A stretch of DNA of 64,000 bases from Escherichia coli (lineage in GTDB: Bacteria > Pseudomonadota > Gammaproteobacteria > Enterobacterales > Enterobacteriaceae). Location: the NCBI RefSeq assembly GCF_013122565.1, contig NZ_CP053258.1. One strand, given 5' to 3'. Under the pieces are notes generated by a model, which had not been told where the DNA came from, searched no databases, and saw only the letters and a program-made list of their open reading frames with translations. Numbering within the stretch: the stretch's first letter is position 1; the number at the start of each line of letters is the position of its first letter. A program made the translations under genes and the position numbers. Below, piece by piece: positions 26,967 to 59,194 of the stretch.

Positions 26967-27401
26967 CAGTGTTTCTCCTTTCGCCCGCCAGAGTAAAAAG
27001 CAACCGTTTACGTTAATGAAACTGTCTAAACACATGCTCGTGGAGTGCCAGTTTTTGCGAGGAAGGGGAGTTAGAGACAGGAATTGCGGAGGCAATCACA
27101 TAATCGTGCTTAAACCACGAAAATGACAAGAGAACCTGACAATGGAATTATCTGTAATTTTCTCATATTGATATTTCATTAATCATTCTGGCATGTCGCA
27201 CTCTCGCATTTAATCGTTTTTATCTGGATAGCGCTCTTTTGATCGGCAATGTTGAAATAATGAAAGCGGCATAGATTGAGGGGCAATAATTTGAACTCAG
27301 TCGCAAAATTATAATTAAAACGGTCATGCTACCTAATATATGCCCGTTTATTGCATCGCGAAATTTGAGAAGACATAACTCATTAAATGAAAGGGATGCA
27401 A

Positions 27402-42273: not shown

Positions 42274-42594
42274 AACCCTCTCCTTAGCTTATACAGATAT
42301 CATTGAGTGACCGGTGTTGAGAAATCCGGTGGTTTAGGGGGATAGAGCAACAATCGCACCACTCTTGCCAGGTTTGGCGGGAAATATAAAAAAATGTGAG
42401 GCGGCTCGAAACTTAAGGGCTTTTTGTGAATGAACTCACAGGTGCCAAATGAGAATTAAAATCACTCCTGAAAATTATTATTGCCAGCCCATTTATCACT
42501 TTTTCTCTTTTCTCAAAATTAGTGATTCCTTATCATTATGATAAAGAGTGCTGGAGGGGTTAAATATTTGAACGCAATCGTTTAACTACGTTTT

Positions 42595-43275: not shown

Positions 43276-44046
43276 GTGAAAAGTATAGTTGACCCATCGG
43301 CATTATTCATTGATTTAGGTGCACAGAAACGTCCCACTGTGATTTCTGTTGTTGGTGCTGGGGGGAAAACCAGCTTGCTTTTTTGGCTGGCAGAACGGCT
43401 CCAGACTAGCGGCAGGCGTGTGTTAATCACGACGACGACACATATGTTTATGCCAACGTCACACTGGCCCGTGGTTTTCTGTCGTGATCCCGCCATGCTT
43501 CCTCATGCGTCTCTTACATCCCCCATTTCATTTTGTTTTCACAGCTGGAAAGCGAACCAGGGAAAAGTGCAGGGATTTACGCCAGAAGCGATTGATGCAC
43601 TGGTGCAACGACCAGAGTGTGACGTAATTCTCATTGAAGCAGATGGCTCGCGTGGAATGCCGTTAAAAGCCCCTGATGAGCACGAACCTTGCATACCCAA
43701 AAGCAGTTGCTGCGTGATTGCTGTGATGGGAGGACATATTTTGGGCGCGAAAGTGAGCACAGAAAATGTCCATCGCTGGTCGCAGTTTGCTGATATTACC
43801 GGGTTAACACCTGATGCAACCTTGCAACTGAGCGATCTCGTTGCGCTGGTTCGCCACCCTCAGGGGGCGTTTAAAAACGTACCGCAAGGTTGTCGGCGAG
43901 TCTGGTTCATTAACCGTTTTTCTCAATGTGAGAATGCGATTGCGCAAAGCGAGCTCCTTCAACCGCTGCAACAACACGACGTAGAGGCAATCTGGCTGGG
44001 CGATATACAAGAACATCCTGCAATCGCGCGCAGATTTGTGAATTAG
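43276..44046 (+). CDS. yqeC: YqeC-family accessory protein of selenium-dependent molybdenum hydroxylases (P-loop)
   Basis: 256 aa with Walker A-like VVGAGGKTS; paired with yqeB. Confidence 0.85.
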   Translation: MKSIVDPSALFIDLGAQKRPTVISVVGAGGKTSLLFWLAERLQTSGRRVLITTTTHMFMPTSHWPVVFCRDPAMLPHASLTSPISFCFHSWKANQGKVQGFTPEAIDALVQRPECDVILIEADGSRGMPLKAPDEHEPCIPKSSCCVIAVMGGHILGAKVSTENVHRWSQFADITGLTPDATLQLSDLVALVRHPQGAFKNVPQGCRRVWFINRFSQCENAIAQSELLQPLQQHDVEAIWLGDIQEHPAIARRFVN

Positions 44047-49624: not shown

Positions 49625-50821
49625 TTAAGGTGCTACAGCGTGTTTGCCTTCCCAGACAACTTCGCGGTAGTGCTTCACGTCGGTGTCGCCTTCAGTGCTG
49701 ATAACCAGCACTACGGCATCTTTGTTCAGCGCCAGTTTTTGCATCAGGCTTTGACGTTGCGGGTGATAATGAACCGCCGCGAGAACGCCCAAACCGACAG
49801 CGCCGGATTCACCGGAGATGATGCGCGGGTCGTTGCCGTACGGATTACCCAGCACGCGCATACCTAATGCGGCAACGCTGTCCTGGCAGGAGATGAATTG
49901 GGTGGCGCAGTTACGTAGGATTTCCCAGCCCAGCGGGTTAGGTTCGCCACAGGCCAGGCCCGCCATGATGGTGGCCATATCACCGCCAACGTTGACGATG
50001 TCGCCTTTGACGCCGGAGCGATAAATACAGTCAGCTTTGTCAGGTTCAACAATAATGCTGTGCAGATTTTGCGGGCTGTAGACGTCGACCAGATAACCCA
50101 GCACACCACCGGCCATTGCACCGACACCGGCTTGCAGCAGAACGTGTGTCGGGGTTACGCCCATTTCACGCATTTGCTCGACGGCTTCATCTGCCAGTGT
50201 TGCGTAGCCTTGCATGATCCAGGTTGGGATTTTAGTGTAACCTTCCCATGCCGTGTCCTGTACCACTTCCCAGCCGTGCTGCTGCGCGTGTTGCATGGTC
50301 AGGCGAACGGTATCGTCATAGTTCATATCCGTGACGATGCACTCGGCACCGAGGTTCAGAATGGCGTCAACGCGTTCCTGAGCAGAACCTTTCGGCATGT
50401 AAATCACCGCATTCTGTCCGAGTTGCTGTGCTGCCCACGCCACACCGCGCCCGTGGTTGCCGTCGGTGGTGGTCGCGAAAGTCATTTTTTCGCCGATGGC
50501 ATTTTTCAGGTGCTCAAATGACAGCGTTTCGATATCAAGATGATATTTTTCACACAATAATTGAGCGATGGCGTACGCACCGCCGAGCATTTTGAAGGCG
50601 TTCAGACCGAATCGTTTTGATTCGTCTTTGACGAGAATTTTCTTCACACCAAAAAGGTTTGCGAGATCGTCCAGCGCACAAAGCGGTGTTGGGCGATAAC
50701 CAGCTATTTTCTGGTGGAACTGGCGCGCCAGTTTGGCCTGGCTTTGCGAAAAGAGCGGTGATGTTTCGCCGTTGAAAAATTTGTTATCGGCGATATCAAT
50801 CTTCAATGAGAAAACGGACAT
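49625..50821 (-). CDS. ygeX: 2,3-diaminopropionate ammonia-lyase (PLP-dependent)
   Basis: 398 aa, tryptophan-synthase-beta-like PLP fold; the alternative name for this gene is dpaL. Confidence 0.9.
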
Positions 50822-50878: not shown

Positions 50879-52069
50879 TTATTTCACGCGTTCTTGCGCT
50901 TCTTTCAGCAGTTGCTCGAGCAGTGCACCTGGTTTGGCGTATTTACGGGACAGGATCATCGCGGCGATGATATAAGGCTTCCAGCTGGCTTCTTTGTAGG
51001 TAGCGATACGGTATTTTTCGAATACGCCTTCAGTCACTTCACCTTCTTTGCAGGATACGCCGCTGATATCAGCTGGCAGGCAGTGCATGTACAGGGCTTC
51101 GCCATCACGGGTCAGTTCCATCATCTCTTCAGTACAATGCCAGTCTTTGTGTTGCGCGTTCTGTGCCAGACACTGTTTTTCCAGTGCTTTTAAGCCTTCG
51201 TGGTCGTTTGCACGCAGCAATTCAGTACGCTCTTCCATCACTTTGTAAGGTGCCCATGACTTCGGATAAACGATGTCTGCGTCTTTGAAGGCTTCTTCCA
51301 TGCTGGTGACCTGACGGAAGCTACCACCGGAGGCTTTAGCATTGTTTTTCGCCACTTCAACCACATCCGGGATCAGGTCGTAGCCTTCCGGATGGGCCAG
51401 GGTGACATCCATACCGAAGCGAGTCATCAGACCGATGATGCCTTGTGGTACAGAGAGCGGTTTGCCATAGCTTGGGGAGTAGGCCCAGGTCATGGCGATT
51501 TTTTTACCTTTCAGGTTTTCCAGTGAACCAAAGTGTTCACGTAACCATGCCAGGTCAGCCATTGACTGAGTCGGGTGGTCAATATCACATTGCAGGTTCA
51601 CTAAAGCCGGACGTTGCGGCAGAACACCCTGCTTGTAACCGTCATCAAGTGCAGCGCCAACTTCACGCATATAGGCGTTGCCTGCGCCCAGATACATATC
51701 GTCGCGAATACCAATAGCGTCGGCGCAGAAGGAGATCATATTGGCGGTTTCACGCACGGTTTCGCCGTGAGCGATTTGTGATTTGCCTTCGTCGAGATCT
51801 TGCTGTGCAAGGCCGAGCAGGTTAAGCGCGGAAGCATAAGAGAAGCGGGTACGAGTGGAGTTGTCGCGGAATACGGAAATACCTAATCCACTGTTAAAGA
51901 CTTTGGTTGAGATGTTTTCAGCACGCAGTGCTTTTAATGCTGCGGCAACGTCCAGTACTTGTTTCAGTTCATCTGGCGTCTGTTCCCACGTTAACAAAAA
52001 ATCTTTCTCGTGAAGGTGAGAGGTCAGCGAATTGATATCCTTAATCAGCTCATTAACAGTTTTCATCAT
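50879..52069 (-). CDS. ygeW: carbamoyltransferase-family protein (OTC/ATC fold, substrate unresolved)
   Basis: 396 aa with STRTR carbamoyl-phosphate-binding motif and HCLP motif. Confidence 0.9.
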   Translation of the reverse strand: MMKTVNELIKDINSLTSHLHEKDFLLTWEQTPDELKQVLDVAAALKALRAENISTKVFNSGLGISVFRDNSTRTRFSYASALNLLGLAQQDLDEGKSQIAHGETVRETANMISFCADAIGIRDDMYLGAGNAYMREVGAALDDGYKQGVLPQRPALVNLQCDIDHPTQSMADLAWLREHFGSLENLKGKKIAMTWAYSPSYGKPLSVPQGIIGLMTRFGMDVTLAHPEGYDLIPDVVEVAKNNAKASGGSFRQVTSMEEAFKDADIVYPKSWAPYKVMEERTELLRANDHEGLKALEKQCLAQNAQHKDWHCTEEMMELTRDGEALYMHCLPADISGVSCKEGEVTEGVFEKYRIATYKEASWKPYIIAAMILSRKYAKPGALLEQLLKEAQERVK

Positions 52070-52544
52070 AAAGTCCCGGTAGTGGAATGACAGGCAAAGT
52101 GGTTTATTTCACTGTGACTTGCCAAAGTGATTGGTGTTTTCACAGCTATACTTGGGACTAACAATAAGTGTGCCAGAATTATCCACGGGGCTGCAAAAGA
52201 CTAATTTGACGGATAATGTGTGGGGTTGATCACAAATTGATGCCAGCTTCCGGTTGTTTGTAAAATACGAAAACGTTTGGCTTTTTTTATCGCGTTATTT
52301 ATTTGCTGCTAAGTATCAGAAATAAGATAAAGGGGCAGGCTATCCCTCGTCAGTTTGATAAACTCACCGCCGTAATTCTCATATTGATATAGAAATGTGA
52401 TATCTCTTCCATAATTTCATTAGAAAGTGATAAAAATCTTATGTTTTTATCAAAGCCAATTTCGCCTGAGTTAATATCATCATGATCTGTGAACCATCAA
52501 CGTCTTCAATGATCGACTTTTAAGTAAGTCTGGAAGGTAAAGCT

Positions 52545-54323
52545 ATGGAGCTTGCTACTACGCAGTCAGTATTGATGCAAATTCAACCGACAATTCAGCG
52601 TTTTGCCAGAATGCTTGCCAGCGTTTTGCAGCTTGAGGTTGAGATCGTTGATGAAAACTTGTGTCGCGTCGCCGGAACTGGCGCGTATGGGAAGTTTCTT
52701 GGTCGCCAGTTGAGCGGCAACTCACGCCTGCTCCGCCACGTCCTGGAAACGAAAACTGAAAAAGTTGTGACACAGTCTCGCTTCGATCCCCTTTGTGAAG
52801 GTTGCGATAGTAAAGAAAATTGCCGCGAAAAAGCATTTCTGGGTACGCCTGTCATTTTACAGGATCGTTGTGTTGGGGTGATAAGTTTGATTGCCGTTAC
52901 CCACGAGCAACAAGAGCATATTAGTGATAATTTACGCGAATTTTCTGATTACGTTCGCCATATATCCACCATTTTTGTTTCGAAACTTCTGGAGGATCAG
53001 GGACCAGGAGATAACATCAGTAAAATATTCGCGACCATGATCGATAATATGGATCAGGGCGTATTAGTTATTGATGACGATAATCGGATTCAGTTTGTTA
53101 ATCAGACAGCCTTAAAAACACTCGGTGTTGTGCAAAATAATATTATTGGGAAACCTATCCGTTTCAGACCATTAACATTTGAGAGTAATTTTACCCATGG
53201 ACATATGCAGCATATTGTTTCGTGGGACGATAAAAGTGAGTTAATCATTGGTCAATTGCATAACATTCAGGGCCGACAATTATTTTTAATGGCGTTTCAC
53301 CAATCGCATACCAGTTTTTCTGTAGCAAATGCACCTGATGAACCGCATATTGAACAATTGGTTGGCGAGTGCCGTGTTATGCGGCAATTAAAACGACTCA
53401 TTAGCCGTATTGCACCCAGCCCATCCAGCGTTATGGTGGTTGGTGAAAGCGGCACGGGTAAAGAAGTCGTCGCCCGTGCAATCCATAAGTTGAGCGGAAG
53501 ACGGAATAAACCCTTTATTGCTATCAACTGTGCCGCGATTCCGGAGCAGCTTCTGGAGAGCGAACTGTTCGGTTATGTTAAAGGCGCATTTACTGGCGCT
53601 TCTGCCAACGGTAAAACAGGGTTGATTCAGGCGGCGAATACGGGCACGCTGTTTCTCGATGAAATAGGTGATATGCCATTAATGTTGCAGGCTAAATTAC
53701 TGCGCGCTATTGAGGCACGTGAAATTCTGCCGATTGGTGCCAGTAGCCCAATACAAGTCGACATTCGCATCATTTCTGCAACTAACCAGAATTTGGCCCA
53801 GTTCATTGCAGAAGGTAAATTCCGCGAAGATCTCTTCTACCGACTTAATGTTATCCCGATAACTCTGCCACCGCTGCGTGAACGTCAGGAAGATATTGAA
53901 CTACTGGTGCATTATTTTTTACATCTGCATACCCGTCGTCTGGGATCGGTTTATCCGGGCATTGCTCCCGATGTCGTCGAAATATTGCGTAAGCATCGTT
54001 GGCCCGGAAACCTGCGCGAGTTAAGCAATTTGATGGAATATCTGGTTAACGTGGTTCCTTCAGGTGAAGTTATCGACAGCACGCTATTGCCGCCAAATCT
54101 GCTGAATAATGGCACAACGGAGCAAAGTGATGTAACAGAGGTCAACGAGGCGCACCTGGCACTCGATGATGCGGGCGGCACGGCGCTGGAGGAGATGGAA
54201 AAGCAAATGATCCGCGAGGCGCTTTCACGTCATAACAGCAAGAAGCAAGTTGCTGATGAACTGGGCATCGGCATTGCTACGCTCTATCGCAAGATTAAGA
54301 AATATGAGTTGTTAAACACATAA
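52545..54323 (+). CDS. ygeV: sigma54-dependent transcriptional activator (bacterial enhancer-binding protein)
   Basis: 592 aa; AAA+ core with Walker A GESGTGKE and the sigma54-contact GAFTGA motif; C-terminal HTH; N-terminal sensory region. Confidence 0.9.
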   Translation: MELATTQSVLMQIQPTIQRFARMLASVLQLEVEIVDENLCRVAGTGAYGKFLGRQLSGNSRLLRHVLETKTEKVVTQSRFDPLCEGCDSKENCREKAFLGTPVILQDRCVGVISLIAVTHEQQEHISDNLREFSDYVRHISTIFVSKLLEDQGPGDNISKIFATMIDNMDQGVLVIDDDNRIQFVNQTALKTLGVVQNNIIGKPIRFRPLTFESNFTHGHMQHIVSWDDKSELIIGQLHNIQGRQLFLMAFHQSHTSFSVANAPDEPHIEQLVGECRVMRQLKRLISRIAPSPSSVMVVGESGTGKEVVARAIHKLSGRRNKPFIAINCAAIPEQLLESELFGYVKGAFTGASANGKTGLIQAANTGTLFLDEIGDMPLMLQAKLLRAIEAREILPIGASSPIQVDIRIISATNQNLAQFIAEGKFREDLFYRLNVIPITLPPLRERQEDIELLVHYFLHLHTRRLGSVYPGIAPDVVEILRKHRWPGNLRELSNLMEYLVNVVPSGEVIDSTLLPPNLLNNGTTEQSDVTEVNEAHLALDDAGGTALEEMEKQMIREALSRHNSKKQVADELGIGIATLYRKIKKYELLNT

Positions 54324-54362: not shown

Positions 54363-54842
54363 TTACTTCGTTTTCTCGCAATCCAGAACCGTATTTACAA
54401 TCATCTGATACCCCGTGCAGCGACAAAGATTTCCCGCCAGTCCGCGACGAATTTCCGTAATGGTTAATGGCTTCTCGCGTGGTTTCGCCAGCATTGCCGT
54501 GGTAGCCATAATCAGGCCAGGCGTACAAAACCCGCACTGCACTGCGCCGGATTTCGCATAAGCCTGCTGAACATGAGAAAGTTTTCCGCCTTTCGCTTCA
54601 CCTTCCAGCGTGCGGATCTCTTTTCCTTCAGCCCAGGCGGCAAGGTATAAGCAACTGTCTATTGCTGTGCCGTCGACCAGCACCGTACAGGCACCACATT
54701 CACCCACGCAGCACCCTTGTTTGACACTTAGCAGTCCTTGTTCGCGGAGTAATTCCGAGAGTGGCGTGCCTGGTGCGGCGTGAAGCTGAAAAGGCATCCC
54801 GTTAATGGTGCATTCGATGGTAATTGTTTCGCTGTGATTCAT
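54363..54842 (-). CDS. xdhC: xanthine dehydrogenase [2Fe-2S] subunit
   Basis: 159 aa with plant-type and second 2Fe-2S Cys motifs ([22 protein letters not shown]). Confidence 0.9.
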
Positions 54843-55717
54843 TGCAATTTTCCCCCCGCCGCGGCGACGGCTTCGCTAATCACTTTTTTGGTCATCGTCT
54901 GGATGAGATGCAGACGAAACTCTTTACTGGCCCGCCATGAAGAACGCGGGGCGACATCTTGCAGGACAGATTCGCTGATAGCTTCCAGCGTTTGCAGTTT
55001 TAATGGCGCATTTTGTGCAGTCTGTTCGGCATGTTGGCAGCGAATCGGCGTTGGCGCGGCAACACCAAATGCCAGACGTAATTCGCTGAAATTGCCGTTA
55101 TCCAGTCGGCAATGTGCGGCGCAGCCAATCGTTGAAATATCCATTGCGTCGCGCATGGCATATTTAAAATGCGCGCTGCCCGCGTGTTCTTTCGGCTGGG
55201 GCGGAAAATGAAAGGCGACAAGGATTTCGTCATGCTCAAGAGACACTTTGCCCGGCCCAGTGTGAAAGCCATTAATCGGGACGAAACGAACACCGCGTGG
55301 GGAGTGGATCTCCAGCTTTGCGTCATAAATTAGCGTTGGCGTGGCAGAATCTGCGCTGGTGGCACCGTTGCAAATATTTCCACCGTAGGTAGCGACGTTA
55401 CGGATCTGCGGTCCGGCAATGGATGAGGCCGCAGCACATAACGCCGGGAGATGACGTTGAGTTACAGGATCTTCAATGAGCTGGGTAAATGTCGTTGCAG
55501 AGCCGATACGTAGCGAGCCATCTTCCGCCAGCGTAATTCCCCGCAATTCCGCCAGATTATGAATATCAACAATATGGCGATAACGGTCATTGTGATGGTG
55601 GAGCTGAATCAGTACGTCAGTGCCACCGGCGAGCAGTTTGGCCTGCGGGTTGTCAGCCAGCAGGTTGATGGCATCGGCAAGGGTTGCTGCGCGATGGTAA
55701 GAAGCAAAATCAAACAT
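54839..55717 (-). CDS. xdhB: xanthine dehydrogenase FAD-binding subunit
   Basis: 292 aa CO-dehydrogenase flavoprotein fold; overlaps the xdhC start. Confidence 0.9.
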
Positions 55718-55727
55718 GATGTTATCC

Positions 55728-57986
55728 TCAAATCAATCCTGCCAGATGGAACTCTTCATATAACCGTTTTGGCGTCAGCGGCAGTGTATTGATTGCAACA
55801 CCGGTAGCCATCTTCACCGCGTTACGAATAGCTGCGGCAACAGGAATTATTGGTGGCTCACCCAGTGACTTATGTCCGTATGCGGATTGCGGCTCATTGA
55901 TTTCGACGAACGCGCTTTCCAGTTGTGGCAGATCCGGCATGGTCGGCATTTTGTAATCCAGCAGATTGGGGTTACGGACCACGCCGCTTTTCGCATCGAT
56001 GATCATCTCTTCAAATAGTGCCCAGCCAATGCCCATTCCCATTCCGCCGTGTACCTGACCTTCTGCTAGCAGCGGATTAAGAATATGCCCCGAATCATGA
56101 ACGTTGAGGATGCGGTTGATGGTGACTTTACACAGCGCAATATCGACCGTCAGGTCAACAAAGGTACAGCCAAACGCCGGTGGGTTAGTGGTGGTTTTGA
56201 TGGAGCTTTCAGCAGAGAGCTGCCCGCCGCGTTCAGAGTGGTAGAAAGCGTCCATCGCCAAAACTTTTAACGACATTAACGGCTCTTCCGGTCGTTCAAT
56301 TAGCACGATATGGCCTTTTATCAGGGTCAGATTCATCGCTGACTGATGTAGCATGACTGCGGCGTGAGCGATGATTTTCTCTTTTAATAACAGTGCTGCA
56401 CTGCGCAGCGCAGGCGCGGCAACATAGCTCTGGCGTGAGGCAAATGCGCCAGGATCGAACGGCGTAACGTCGGTATCTTGTGTTGAAATAACGCGAATGT
56501 CGCTGACCGGAACCCCCACGGTTTCTGCCACCATTTGCGAGAAGACGGTGTCGGCACCCTGGCCGATTTCCGTCGCGCCGCTTTGCACGTTGATGGTTCC
56601 ATCCTGATTCATCAACAGGCGCGCGCCTGCTATTTCTACGCCGACAGGCCAGGTGTTAGAGGTGTAGCTAAAACAGGCGACGCCAACGCCGCGGCGTAAA
56701 TTGCCTTGCTGGTTCTGGCACTCTGCACGGCGTTTTTCCCATTCAAAGATTTTCCGGCCTTTTTCAAGACACTCCGGCAACCCTGCGCTGTAAATACGTT
56801 TGCCTGTGAGCGGATTAGCATCTCCTTCGCGGGCGGCGTTGCGTAAACGAATTTCAACAGGATCAATACCTAACGCTGTCGCGGCGTCATCAAGCATAGA
56901 CTCAACGGCAAATACGACTTGTGGCGCGCCATAACCACGCATCGCACCAGCCGAGGGGAGGTTGGTATAGCAGGTCTTTGAACTGTAAGCGTAGGCACAA
57001 CGAGGATAAAGGTAAGCGACTTTATTCCCCCCCGCAGAAGCGATGGAGTGCCCGTGAGATGCGTAAGCGCCGGTGTTAGACAGAACATCCAGACTATAAC
57101 CTTTCAATGTTCCGTCGCGGTTCACGCCCATTTGCCCGTCAATAGTAAAAGCGTGGCGGGTACGGGTTGCGAGGAAACACTCTTCACGGCTAAGGGACAC
57201 TTTCACCGGAATGCCGCCAAGCTTGCTGGTCAGGAATGCCGCCATTGGCTCTTCCAGTACATCCTGTTTATTACCAAAACCGCCACCGACAAACGGTTTG
57301 ATGACTCGTACGCATGACCAGGGAATATTCAGCGCCTGACCAACCACACGGCGAACAATGTGCGGGATCTGGGTGCTGGAAACGATGGTAATTCGCGAGT
57401 CATCCTCCATCCATGCCAGCGATGTCACGCTTTCCATGTGACAATGTTGAATGACCGGCGTCTGATAGTGCCCCTGTACCTGGTAGTCGGCGGCATCGAT
57501 TGTTTGTTGGACATTGCCCGTCGACATCGTGCTTTGTTTTAGTAAATTGCCGCCGTTATGGATTGGTGCAGCGTCATCAGCCAGCGCCGCTTCTGGGGTG
57601 GTGATAACGGGTAATTCTTGCCACTCAATGCTGACCAATTGCGCCGCTTTTTCTGCCGTGAGTTCATCACGGGCCACGACGATGGCAACGGCGTCACCAT
57701 GGTGACGAACATGGCGAGTTAGCAGTGCGCGATCGGCGGTATCGCGCTTGTTTTCGTCAAGTGTCCAGGCATGCCCAGCTGTAGCGAATGGGATATCAGG
57801 CACATCTTCCCAGGTAAAAATCGCCAGTACGCCCGGTAAACTTCTGGCTTGTTCATCATTAATACTTACGGCATAACCATGTGCGATAGGGCTACGTACA
57901 TATTTCGCGTAACACATGCCCGCCATAACATAATCGTCAGTATATCGTGCCCGCCCGGTGACCTTAGCAATGGCATCTACGCGCAT
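55728..57986 (-). CDS. xdhA: xanthine dehydrogenase molybdenum-binding subunit
   Basis: 752 aa from MRVDAIAKVTGRARYTDDY; ORF-track 13-codon extension trimmed. Confidence 0.9.
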   Translation of the reverse strand: MRVDAIAKVTGRARYTDDYVMAGMCYAKYVRSPIAHGYAVSINDEQARSLPGVLAIFTWEDVPDIPFATAGHAWTLDENKRDTADRALLTRHVRHHGDAVAIVVARDELTAEKAAQLVSIEWQELPVITTPEAALADDAAPIHNGGNLLKQSTMSTGNVQQTIDAADYQVQGHYQTPVIQHCHMESVTSLAWMEDDSRITIVSSTQIPHIVRRVVGQALNIPWSCVRVIKPFVGGGFGNKQDVLEEPMAAFLTSKLGGIPVKVSLSREECFLATRTRHAFTIDGQMGVNRDGTLKGYSLDVLSNTGAYASHGHSIASAGGNKVAYLYPRCAYAYSSKTCYTNLPSAGAMRGYGAPQVVFAVESMLDDAATALGIDPVEIRLRNAAREGDANPLTGKRIYSAGLPECLEKGRKIFEWEKRRAECQNQQGNLRRGVGVACFSYTSNTWPVGVEIAGARLLMNQDGTINVQSGATEIGQGADTVFSQMVAETVGVPVSDIRVISTQDTDVTPFDPGAFASRQSYVAAPALRSAALLLKEKIIAHAAVMLHQSAMNLTLIKGHIVLIERPEEPLMSLKVLAMDAFYHSERGGQLSAESSIKTTTNPPAFGCTFVDLTVDIALCKVTINRILNVHDSGHILNPLLAEGQVHGGMGMGIGWALFEEMIIDAKSGVVRNPNLLDYKMPTMPDLPQLESAFVEINEPQSAYGHKSLGEPPIIPVAAAIRNAVKMATGVAINTLPLTPKRLYEEFHLAGLI

Positions 57987-58080
57987 GCATGATTCACCTG
58001 TAGCGGTTGCTTCCCGCGCTTCCATAGAAATCCCCTCGATTTGAACATTTGGTTCTTATGGCAAAGATTTAGTCTAAGCA

Positions 58081-58097
58081 GGCAAGATTTACGCCAG
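58081..58097 (-). promoter_or_regulatory. candidate sigma54 -24/-12 promoter upstream of xdhABC
   Basis: minus-strand sequence cTGGCgtaaatcTTGCc with GG-N10-GC spacing, about 95 nt upstream of the xdhA ATG; sigma54 activator gene ygeV is adjacent. Confidence 0.35.
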
Positions 58098-58441
58098 AAA
58101 CGACGATAAGCGTTAAGGGAGGAAGGAAGTGTGATGATGTTAAAAAAAACACAGATATGATACGAAACAGGACCCTGAATAGGGGCAGTGATACGTATCA
58201 ATATGAGTGGCGATAAAATCAATGTGATAAATTGGGATTATTACGCATCAGGATGGGAAATAGGGTAAATGAGTCAGGAAATTCGATACCTCTACAGTGA
58301 ATATTTTGCTGATGATACTTCCCTTTGCCAAATGAAATTAATCTCTTTCTCTATTACTGCGTTTTTCCAGAAGCAAGAGATTGGGTATCAAGAGGCTGGC
58401 TGCTATGATATGGCGTCTTGTTTTTTAAGCGAGGAAAGATT

Positions 58442-59194
58442 TTGAGTGCGGGACGCCTGAATAAAAAATCTCTGGGTATCGTGATGTTGTTATCGGTTGG
58501 ACTGCTTTTGGCGGGCTGTTCGGGTAGCAAATCATCCGATACAGGAACGTATTCCGGCTCCGTTTACACCGTGAAACGGGGGGATACTCTATATCGTATT
58601 TCGCGCACCACGGGAACCAGCGTAAAAGAGCTGGCGCGACTGAACGGCATTTCCCCCCCTTACACCATTGAAGTTGGTCAGAAACTAAAACTGGGTGGGG
58701 CGAAAAGTAGCAGTACACGTAAATCAACCGCCAAATCAACGACCAAAACCGCATCTGTTACACCGTCATCAGCGGTACCGAAATCTTCCTGGCCGCCAGT
58801 AGGGCAACGTTGTTGGTTATGGCCAACGACAGGGAAAGTTATCATGCCGTATTCGACAGCTGATGGCGGCAATAAAGGGATTGATATCTCAGCACCACGG
58901 GGTACACCTATTTACGCCGCGGGTGCAGGAAAGGTGGTGTATGTAGGCAATCAGCTGCGTGGCTACGGTAATCTCATCATGATTAAACACAGTGAAGATT
59001 ATATTACGGCTTACGCACATAATGACACGATGCTGGTTAATAATGGGCAAAGCGTGAAGGCTGGGCAAAAAATCGCCACTATGGGGAGCACTGATGCGGC
59101 ATCTGTTCGCCTGCATTTCCAGATTCGTTACCGTGCAACGGCAATTGATCCGCTACGTTACTTGCCGCCTCAGGGCAGCAAGCCAAAATGCTGA
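58442..59194 (+). CDS. ygeR: LysM-domain / M23-peptidase-family lipoprotein
   Basis: lipobox LLLAGC, LysM (YTVKRGDTLYRISR) and M23 LytM-like C-terminus; start uncertain (TTG at 58442 with RBS gagga, TTG at 58418, or ATG at 58484). Confidence 0.8.
   Translation: MSAGRLNKKSLGIVMLLSVGLLLAGCSGSKSSDTGTYSGSVYTVKRGDTLYRISRTTGTSVKELARLNGISPPYTIEVGQKLKLGGAKSSSTRKSTAKSTTKTASVTPSSAVPKSSWPPVGQRCWLWPTTGKVIMPYSTADGGNKGIDISAPRGTPIYAAGAGKVVYVGNQLRGYGNLIMIKHSEDYITAYAHNDTMLVNNGQSVKAGQKIATMGSTDAASVRLHFQIRYRATAIDPLRYLPPQGSKPKC

Follow-up and report, generated by a model that had tools for sequence, protein, structure and literature searches.

A sigma54-dependent xdhABC promoter in Escherichia coli and its probable place in a YgeV regulon resembling that of clostridial DioR

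Introduction

Catabolic operons read from sigma54 promoters may be controlled by a dedicated activator and by carbon supply at once. The prpBCDE operon with PrpR is such a case, in which a sigma54 promoter and an enhancer-binding protein without a receiver domain are combined with CRP-dependent catabolite repression.

For purine catabolism, a comparable regulon has been predicted in Clostridiales. A 2019 reconstruction of their sigma54 regulons includes the enhancer-binding protein DioR (named proteins CBO2889 and CD2092), with its function listed as “Unknown” (PMC6615313). The DioR regulon comprises dpaL(ygeX)-pbuX-pyrC(hyuA), ygeW-ygfK-ssnA-ygeY, yqeC-ygfJ-yqeB-xdhC and hyp-xdhABC, and the predicted enhancer site is TTATCA-N3-TGATAA, a motif that is itself computational. 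Examples are ATTTATCATAATGATAAGG, ATTTATCAAAGTGATAAGT, GTTTATCGTTTTGATAAAA (before xdhABC) and ATTTCCCAATATGAGAATT (C. difficile) (PMC6615313).

In E. coli, Zhao, Liu & Burgess (2010) reported tttcTGGCGTAAATCTTGCCTGctta at -110..-93 of xdhA, with xdhA expression that rose 4.9-fold when sigma54 was induced and dropped 2.1-fold when rpoN was deleted (PMC2831329). The identical 17-mer is the sigma54 ChIP-seq site OS29 of MG1655, with a fold above threshold of 11 and flagged as “experimentally confirmed in EcoCyc”; it is adjoined in the same table by OS30 (ygeW), OS31 (ygfK) and OS32 (ygfT) (Bonocora 2015, PMC4591121). That study also validated, through mutation, a sigma54 promoter inside yqeC that serves yqeB, and cautioned that ChIP occupancy is no proof of productive transcription (PMC4591121). 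Reitzer & Schneider (2001), as cited by PRECISE-1K (PMC10602906), already placed sigma54 promoters upstream of xdhABC and ygeWXY. According to the same citation they also proposed the YgeV/sigma54 link, which an earlier note on this DNA also put forward. Both the sigma54 promoter of xdhABC, which is borne out here, and its link to YgeV, which is supported indirectly, are already known.

The ygeW-ygfT/xdh cluster is a gut-bacterial urate (2,8-dioxopurine) degradation pathway and is relevant to gout. Papers on this pathway describe its regulation as poorly understood, and bypassed it with inserted constitutive promoters.

Results

Gene layout and start of xdhA

The window is the whole stretch of E. 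coli DNA that was analysed, 64,000 nucleotides in length. The intergenic region between xdhA and ygeR (actS) occupies 57987-58441. Of 5426 complete E. coli genomes, 5411 contain a match (95-99.5% identity) to a 601-bp stretch around the xdhA promoter, with xdhA and actS (= ygeR) annotated as its neighbours. The genes of this part of the window are:

58442-59194, plus strand: open reading frame of ygeR (actS)
58023-58037, minus strand: Shine-Dalgarno GAGGGGA and upstream ATG at 58025, conserved in alignment A1
55728-58025, minus strand: xdhA, first gene of the operon xdhABC (54363-58025)
54839-55717, minus strand: xdhB, operon xdhABC
54363-54842, minus strand: xdhC, operon xdhABC
52545-54323, plus strand: ygeV, convergent with xdhC across a 39-bp gap
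50879-52069, minus strand: open reading frame of ygeW
49625-50821, minus strand: open reading frame of ygeX

The remaining ygeY...ygfT/uacT purine cluster runs down to about 25.5 kb in the window. The earlier note had ygeV immediately beyond xdhC and downstream of it; the adjacency is right, but the two genes are convergent and not co-oriented.

Alignment A1 was made of 17 orthologous xdhA upstream regions, with a mean column identity of 44%. It contains 31 invariant columns, all of them in the dyads and the TCAC block described below, the -24/-12 element, the Shine-Dalgarno sequence or coding sequence (two columns). The ATG at 58025 is likely the true start of xdhA, which would give a protein of 765 aa and a 45-nt leader. 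This is suggested by the codon-like substitution pattern in A1, by a CTG that replaces the K-12-type start in two Trabulsiella loci, and by the RefSeq annotation of xdhA, which has 765 aa.

The -24/-12 element

58081-58097, minus strand: CTGGCGTAAATCTTGCC, sigma54 -24/-12 element (xdhAp) on the xdhA coding strand, recognised by pattern, position weight matrix (PWM) and published site

A search for cTGGCgtaaatcTTGCc found it at 58081-58097 (-), its 3' end lying 95 nt from the K-12-type xdhA ATG (57986), which agrees with the motif noted before at about 95 nt upstream of xdhA on the coding strand. In TGGCGTAAATCTTGC the GG-N10-GC spacing is exact (frame TGGCAC-N5-TTGCW). Departures from the consensus are GT for AC after TGGC and C for the final W after TTGC.

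PWM scoring, which the earlier note had suggested, was run with a matrix trained on 38 other ChIP-verified intergenic E. coli sites. The element scores 12.0 bits, the 5th highest value among 128,000 window positions, and lies below 36 of the 38 training sites (range 7.8-20.9 bits, median 16.6). It had been called a good match on account of the spacing, TGGC and TTGC. For a genuine sigma54 site the match is weak, a point that counts against the promoter reading. The PSSM of Bonocora (2015) gives the xdhA site 10.93, mid-range of their Table 1 (PMC4591121).

As for frequency, the window contains 4 instances of TGGC-N7-TTGC where 4.09 would be expected, so that the bare pattern is at chance, and the sigma54 consensus with 2 mismatches is also at chance level (42 found, 42.9 expected). 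Such rates are what a functionless chance match would produce. We regard this explanation of the xdhA motif as barely credible, since it is refuted by ChIP-seq occupancy, by rpoN-dependent expression and by the orthologues, all 28 of which keep the site at a constant position while its spacer varies.

These orthologues come from an XdhA scan with one genome per species, which gave 28 usable orthologous xdhA loci in at least 11 genera: Escherichia, Citrobacter, Kluyvera, Atlantibacter, Buttiauxella, Hafnia, Enterobacillus, Yokenella, Trabulsiella, Pluralibacter and, from Klebsiella, Klebsiella indica. The orthologous site is the best sigma54 match within 500 bp upstream of xdhA at every one of the 28 loci. 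TGGCGT...TTGC is invariant in all of them and five spacer bases vary. The site lies at -94 to -125 from the K-12-type ATG, and the distance from promoter to ATG drifts from 93 to 124 bp. An invariant core with a variable spacer is the mark that selection on the -24/-12 contacts leaves. The sequence and conservation reported here thus join the published sigma54 occupancy (OS29) and rpoN effect on xdhA in bearing out a sigma54 promoter for xdhABC. What makes xdhAp real is its location, its conservation and the published data, and not the frequency of the pattern.

By the rule of Bonocora, which places the start 19 bp downstream of the motif centre, transcription of xdhA is predicted to begin at about 58070 (-), 84 nt before the annotated ATG. 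Scans of 57900-58500 gave no terminator, and an Rfam search for a leader riboswitch in 57800-58600 returned nothing at E <= 1.

Dyads upstream of xdhAp

The following blocks lie between ygeR and the promoter:

58217-58229, minus strand: dyad 1, TATCACATTGATT, centre at about -153, TATCA/TGA columns invariant in A1, candidate YgeV (DioR-type) enhancer
58196-58208, minus strand: dyad 2, ACTCATATTGATA, centre at about -132, 21 bp from dyad 1, invariant in A1
58130-58145, minus strand: CRP-like TTTTA-N6-TCACA block, centre at -67.5, between enhancer and promoter, TCAC invariant in A1 and preceded by a T-run

A search for inverted-repeat enhancer sites upstream of the -24 element had been proposed, and in the window it gives two TATCA-N3-TGA(TA) dyads 108-133 bp upstream of the -24 TGGC. 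In A1 they read TATCAcAATGA, a spacer of about 11 bp, and then CTCATnnTGATA. Across the orthologues they stand 130-135 and 108-113 bp from TGGC, with the exception of Hafnia, where they have moved by about 20 bp, or two helical turns. The dyad-to-TGGC distance is fixed and the promoter-to-ATG distance drifts, and so the dyads belong with the promoter, not with the gene. A 12-mer of dyad 2, CTCATATTGATA, recurs upstream of ygeW and ygfT. A repeat search also brought up a TGATACG repeat upstream of xdhA that is specific to E. coli and not conserved in A1.

The window contains 11 copies of the half-dyad TATCA-N3-TGA where 1.67 would be expected, a count that none of 100 shuffles reached. Eight of the 11 lie in front of four sigma54 promoters, between about -131 and -331, where 0.09 would be expected locally (Markov control, 0 of 5000 shuffles). 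Their positions are -154 and -131 at xdhA, -331, -235 and -206 at ygeW, -202 at ygfK (a perfect palindrome, both strands counted) and -198 at ygfT. The longer 13-bp dyad T[AC]TCA-N3-TGA[TG]A was found 5 times in the window (0.19 expected), always inside the purine cluster. At ygeW the dyads are invariant among 12 orthologues (alignment A2). One dyad lies within ygeX (50533-50545), and no sigma54 site was found downstream of it.

The conserved dyads bear on whether an unrecognised sigma70 or sigmaS promoter in the intergenic region might account for most of the transcription of xdhABC, with the sigma54 site bound but minor and the dyads acting as a classical operator or activator site. Another promoter may contribute at xdhA, as the drop in the rpoN deletion is only about two-fold (2.1-fold, PMC2831329); many of the sigma54 sites seen by ChIP do not correspond to any known promoter (PMC4591121), and the PWM score of xdhAp is at the low end. 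Yet the one sigma70 match in a scan of 57900-58500, at 58331-58303, was weak and no more than chance would give, and a credible -35/-10 pair was found nowhere between the dyads and xdhA. The invariance of TGGCGT/TTGC in at least 11 genera, together with the fixed distance from the dyads to -24, argues for a working enhancer-promoter unit. Small rpoN effects are also to be expected, because in standard media the majority of enhancer-binding proteins are not active (Bonocora 2015, PMC4591121). We therefore hold a main sigma70 or sigmaS promoter to be quite improbable, and keep to xdhAp as the sigma54 promoter of the operon.

CRP-like sites and the other cluster promoters

The remaining sigma54 promoters of the cluster were laid out in the same way:

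52160-52176, minus strand: ygeW sigma54 site CTGGCACACTTATTGTT, in the ygeW promoter region (52160-52389), ChIP-seq OS30 and gSELEX peak
52219-52234, minus strand: ygeW CRP-like site TGTGA-N6-CCACA at -77.5, a clear match
52267-52282, minus strand: PurR-like box in the ygeW promoter region
52348-52360 and 52377-52389, minus strand: dyads of the ygeW promoter region
42346-42362, minus strand: ygfK sigma54 site, in the ygfK promoter region (42346-42543), ChIP-seq OS31
42425-42440, minus strand: ygfK CRP-like site at -97.5, a perfect consensus match
42531-42543, minus strand: ygfK perfect dyad TATCATAATGATA at -202
27161-27173, plus strand: ygfT (uacF) dyad TCTCATATTGATA at -198, in the promoter region 27161-27355
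27290-27305, plus strand: ygfT CRP-like site at -68.5, a weaker match
27339-27355, plus strand: ygfT sigma54 site TATGCCCGTTTATTGCA, ChIP-seq OS32
43618-43633, plus strand: yqeB CRP-like site at -78.5, a weaker match
43677-43693, plus strand: yqeC-internal sigma54 promoter for yqeB (region 43618-43933), mutation test of Bonocora
43921-43933, plus strand: yqeB perfect dyad TCTCAATGTGAGA, downstream of the yqeC-internal promoter

At each of the five cluster promoters there is a CRP-like site that departs from the consensus at no more than 2 positions and has its centre between -67.5 and -97.5. Within the -55 to -105 interval, shuffled sequences gave such a site at 0.19 promoters on average, and none of 20,000 shuffles reached five, so that the pattern over the five promoters is far from random; matches with 2 mismatches are themselves common in the window (36 found against 26.6 expected). 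At xdhA only the right half of the site is good, and it has 2 mismatches. Inspection by eye gave no convincing match to the IHF consensus WATCAA-N4-TTR between enhancer and promoter, and for the TCACA block we prefer the reading as a candidate CRP site to one as a site of IHF or another protein. Glucose represses urate degradation, and a “native Crp-binding site” has been described between ygeV and ygeW (PMC12507026). A CRP-like site at each cluster promoter fits both of these observations.

YgeV as candidate activator

YgeV carries the GAFTGA motif that had been ascribed to it, at residues 347-352, and a Walker A GESGTGK at residue 300. Its sigma54 AAA+ domain (PF00158) covers residues 272-439 (E = 2e-70) and is accompanied by an AAA lid; a Fis-type HTH_8 lies at the C-terminal end (residues 548-587, E = 3e-13). 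The N-terminus is made of a cysteine-rich domain and PAS, and a PDB sequence search with the N-terminal 266 residues gave only weak PAS matches. No NCBIfam equivalog cutoff was reached, the best partial match being PrdR. YgeV has been called an “orphan RR” (PMC9426417); a two-component response regulator is ruled out, as the domain search found no Response_reg match and the protein is without an N-terminal receiver domain. The literature search found no paper with “UacR” as a newer name for YgeV.

The earlier note knew of no firmly established target for YgeV. Published work says otherwise: ygfT expression is reduced in a ygeV mutant according to a prior study cited by PRECISE-1K (PMC10602906), and ygeV is reported to be needed for urate consumption that depends on formate (Iwadate & Kato 2019, through a citing paper). 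A search of the literature turned up neither a mapped start site for xdhA nor data on YgeV-DNA binding. The proposed YgeV/sigma54 regulon that covers xdhABC finds indirect support in three lines of evidence. YgeV is the sole enhancer-binding protein encoded in the cluster, the YgeV iModulon contains xdhABC, ygeWXY and ygfT (PRECISE-1K 2023, PMC10602906), and the dyad is shared between the promoters. On these grounds YgeV may be taken as the candidate activator of xdhABC, and the dyads as its putative operator.

Some observations count against YgeV. Its iModulon is activated under odd conditions, namely ethanol in baeR or cpxR mutants (PMC10602906). In EHEC, YgeV has been linked to indole and the LEE virulence genes instead. 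Finally, the three genera Kluyvera, Hafnia and Enterobacillus keep the promoter and the dyads, with no ygeV within 10 kb.

The last two points would suit a different arrangement, in which sigma54 holoenzyme occupies the site but is activated there by another enhancer-binding protein, such as NtrC when nitrogen is limiting, and the dyads bind another factor. Nitrogen limitation induces the yqeC-internal sigma54 promoter of this cluster (Bonocora 2015, PMC4591121), and gSELEX shows an in vitro NtrC peak inside xdhB/xdhC. Against this, a site of the TGCACC-N3-GGTGCA type was not seen by eye in the xdhA upstream region, where no blocks upstream of the promoter are invariant apart from the TATCA dyads and the TCAC block. 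In Firmicutes this dyad is found alongside YgeV/DioR homologues and uricolytic genes, and within the YgeV iModulon xdhABC varies together with the cluster's other operons (PMC10602906). We consider a different activator unlikely, and YgeV the better candidate.

Proposed relation to clostridial DioR

The E. coli ygfK site cTTTATCATAATGATAAGG matches the DioR site ATTTATCATAATGATAAGG at 18 of 19 positions, and the ygeW site has CAATATGAGAATT in common with the C. difficile DioR site. An exhaustive profile search with YgeV returned many full-length homologues at 35-41% identity. One of them, P0128, aligns with YgeV end to end at 39% identity, with the N-terminal CxxCx5C motif conserved, the HTH segment LGIGIATLYRKI identical and the recognition-helix segment nearly identical in the two proteins.

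P0128 is encoded on a contig of 29.6% GC, next to genes for PALP, M20 peptidase, Amidohydro_3, DHO_dh-Fer4 and L-PSP; this neighbourhood is a C. difficile-type uricolytic cluster. On this contig a sigma54-like site, TTGGCTTTTGAATTGCT, is preceded at some 100-120 bp by AATTATCATATTGATAAAT and TTTTATCAATATGATAATT, and more dyads stand before the regulator gene and a permease gene. These likenesses suggest that YgeV may be the enterobacterial DioR.

Discussion

We favour, with fair assurance, the reading that 58081-58097 (-) is xdhAp, the sigma54-dependent promoter of xdhABC, most likely activated by YgeV through two dyads with the aid of a CRP-like site, and that it belongs to a YgeV purine/urate regulon that is the counterpart of the clostridial DioR regulon. 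Within it we infer the binding of YgeV to the dyads, the role of CRP, the exact start site and the inducing signal.

In the proposed mechanism, RNA polymerase-sigma54 would sit as a closed complex on TGGC (-24) and TTGC (-12) at 58081-58097. An oligomer of YgeV would occupy the two dyads (about -153 and -132) on the same helical face. The conserved CRP-like site at -67.5 would aid looping and give catabolite control; YgeV would loop over the CRP-bent DNA, and its GAFTGA loops and ATP hydrolysis would open the promoter. Transcription would then start near 58070 and continue through xdhABC. The layout of dyad, CRP-like site and -24/-12 element is repeated at ygeW, ygfK and ygfT, with the yqeB dyad standing downstream of its promoter. 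From this shared three-part layout, xdhABC would be one operon of a YgeV regulon for purine/urate catabolism.

The wider proposal seems to us somewhat better than an even guess. It holds that YgeV is of the DioR family and binds TTATCA-N3-TGATAA dyads at the xdhA, ygeW, yqeB, ygfK and ygfT sigma54 promoters, each with a phased CRP site. Firmicutes and Enterobacterales would then share a regulon in its enzymes, activator, operator and sigma54. The CxxCx5C and PAS N-terminus would be the sensor of the inducer, perhaps urate or 2,8-dioxopurine.

The “nitrogen-type control” that had been attached to this promoter is not demonstrated by sigma54 dependence, and the cis-elements point to a pathway-specific activator and CRP. 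Hints of nitrogen were met in two places only, the induction of yqeB on nitrogen limitation (PMC4591121) and the in vitro NtrC peak in xdhB/xdhC.

What we would add to the published record is modest and testable: the candidate YgeV dyads, the proposed DioR link and the CRP-like architecture, all of them read from sequence. The candidate YgeV operator, the CRP-like sites and the link to DioR offer targets for reporter assays, for an inducer search and for de-repressed probiotic strains.

Comparison with known systems

The nearest known case is the K-12 xdhA promoter itself (Zhao 2010; Bonocora OS29; EcoCyc), which has the same 17-mer, orientation, downstream gene and 84-nt distance from start to ATG. 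The promoter is no different from the catalogued one; the window belongs to a different strain, with 99.5% identity to FDAARGOS_497. The catalogued K-12 entries give no activator site.

The likeness to prpBCDE/PrpR lies in a catabolic operon with a sigma54 promoter, an adjacent pathway-specific activator that senses a ligand, and a cAMP-CRP input. The two systems differ in the family branch of the activator, in the DNA site and in the pathway, and the CRP role at xdhAp comes from sequence only.

With glnAp2/NtrC, xdhAp would have in common a closed complex at -24/-12 and tandem dyad enhancers about 110-140 bp upstream, two helical turns apart. In contrast to NtrC, YgeV is without a receiver domain, and no NtrC sites were seen by eye at xdhAp.

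Lastly, the DioR regulon resembles the E. coli cluster in its sigma54 promoters, which have dyads of the form TTATCA-N3-TGATAA (or TCTCA..TGAGA) at 100-300 bp upstream. Genes with such dyads in front are ygeW-ygfK-ssnA-ygeY, dpaL(ygeX)-pyrC(hyuA)-argE(ygeY), yqeB/yqeC and hyp-xdhABC. In both, an enhancer-binding protein is encoded within the cluster, and a YgeV homologue is found in such a clostridial-type cluster. The reconstruction (PMC6615313) was limited to Clostridiales, term searches in it brought up no E. coli YgeV, and the E. coli sites are often half-degenerate (TATCA-N3-TGA..) when set against the DioR dyads. The comparison covered dyads and sigma54 sites in both, and CRP-like sites in E. 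coli.

Translation start of xdhA

The K-12-type start of xdhA is probably misplaced. Two starts were compared, both on the minus strand.

ATG 57986, minus strand: K-12-type xdhA start, giving 752 aa
ATG 58025 (region 58023-58037), minus strand: alternative upstream start with a GAGGGGA Shine-Dalgarno sequence, conserved

ATG 58025 and its Shine-Dalgarno sequence are retained across genera, substitutions between orthologues are codon-like, and two Trabulsiella loci carry CTG at the K-12 start position. The RefSeq PGAP annotation already reports an xdhA of 765 aa. Initiation at 58025 would leave a predicted leader of 45 nt instead of 84 nt.

xdhA loci and YgeV-like proteins

The xdhA sigma54 promoter and both upstream dyads (candidate enhancer sites for the activator YgeV) are retained in the loci L008, L009 and L018 (Kluyvera), L015 (Hafnia) and L016 (Enterobacillus), and none of these has ygeV within 10 kb. 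Directly after xdhABC, Kluyvera georgiana L008, the only such locus with ORFs listed, has ORFs resembling ygfM, xdhD, xanQ and guaD, assigned by size only.

Second YgeV paralogues, with 37-38% identity to YgeV, occur at two xdhA loci.

L027 8939-9730: paralogue in a Pluralibacter MAG
L031 9496-11235: paralogue in Citrobacter sp. NCU1

The L027 gene directly precedes xdhA and shares its strand.

YgeV is labelled an "orphan response regulator" in the literature (PMC9426417); a receiver domain is absent from it. Its N-terminal domain contains the following motif.

Residues 84-93 (window ~52794-52823): CxxCx5C (C84, C87, C93)

Its retention in P0128, a 39%-identical homologue from a low-GC contig, points tentatively to a sensor function (metal, redox or selenium-related).

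PurR-like boxes and sigma54-like elements

52267-52282, minus strand: PurR-like box AGCCAAACGTTTTCGT, upstream of ygeW

The PurR operator consensus is ACGCAAACGTTTTCGT, from which this box differs at 2 positions. Of 12 orthologous ygeV-ygeW intergenic regions, 9 carry the box almost unchanged, suggesting that ygeW receives regulatory input from the purine repressor. A poorer match, with 3 mismatches, was seen at 26998-27013, close to uacT.

The ygfK promoter has two overlapping sigma54-like elements, and the site chosen differs by study.

42355-42371, minus strand: CTGGCAAGAGTGGTGCG, picked by Zhao 2010 (PMC2831329)
42346-42362, minus strand: GTGGTGCGATTGTTGCT, picked by Bonocora 2015 (PMC4591121)

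Dyads within coding sequences

Two perfect dyads are located inside genes.

50533-50545: TATCAAGATGATA, in the ygeX coding sequence, ~900 bp ahead of ygeY
43921-43933: TCTCAATGTGAGA, of the C. difficile type, in yqeC

No sigma54-like site was found downstream of the ygeX-internal dyad. The validated yqeC-internal sigma54 promoter (43677-43693) lies ~220 bp upstream of the yqeC dyad, and the yqeB ATG follows 167 bp after the dyad. The C. difficile-type dyad may be an enhancer that works from a downstream position.
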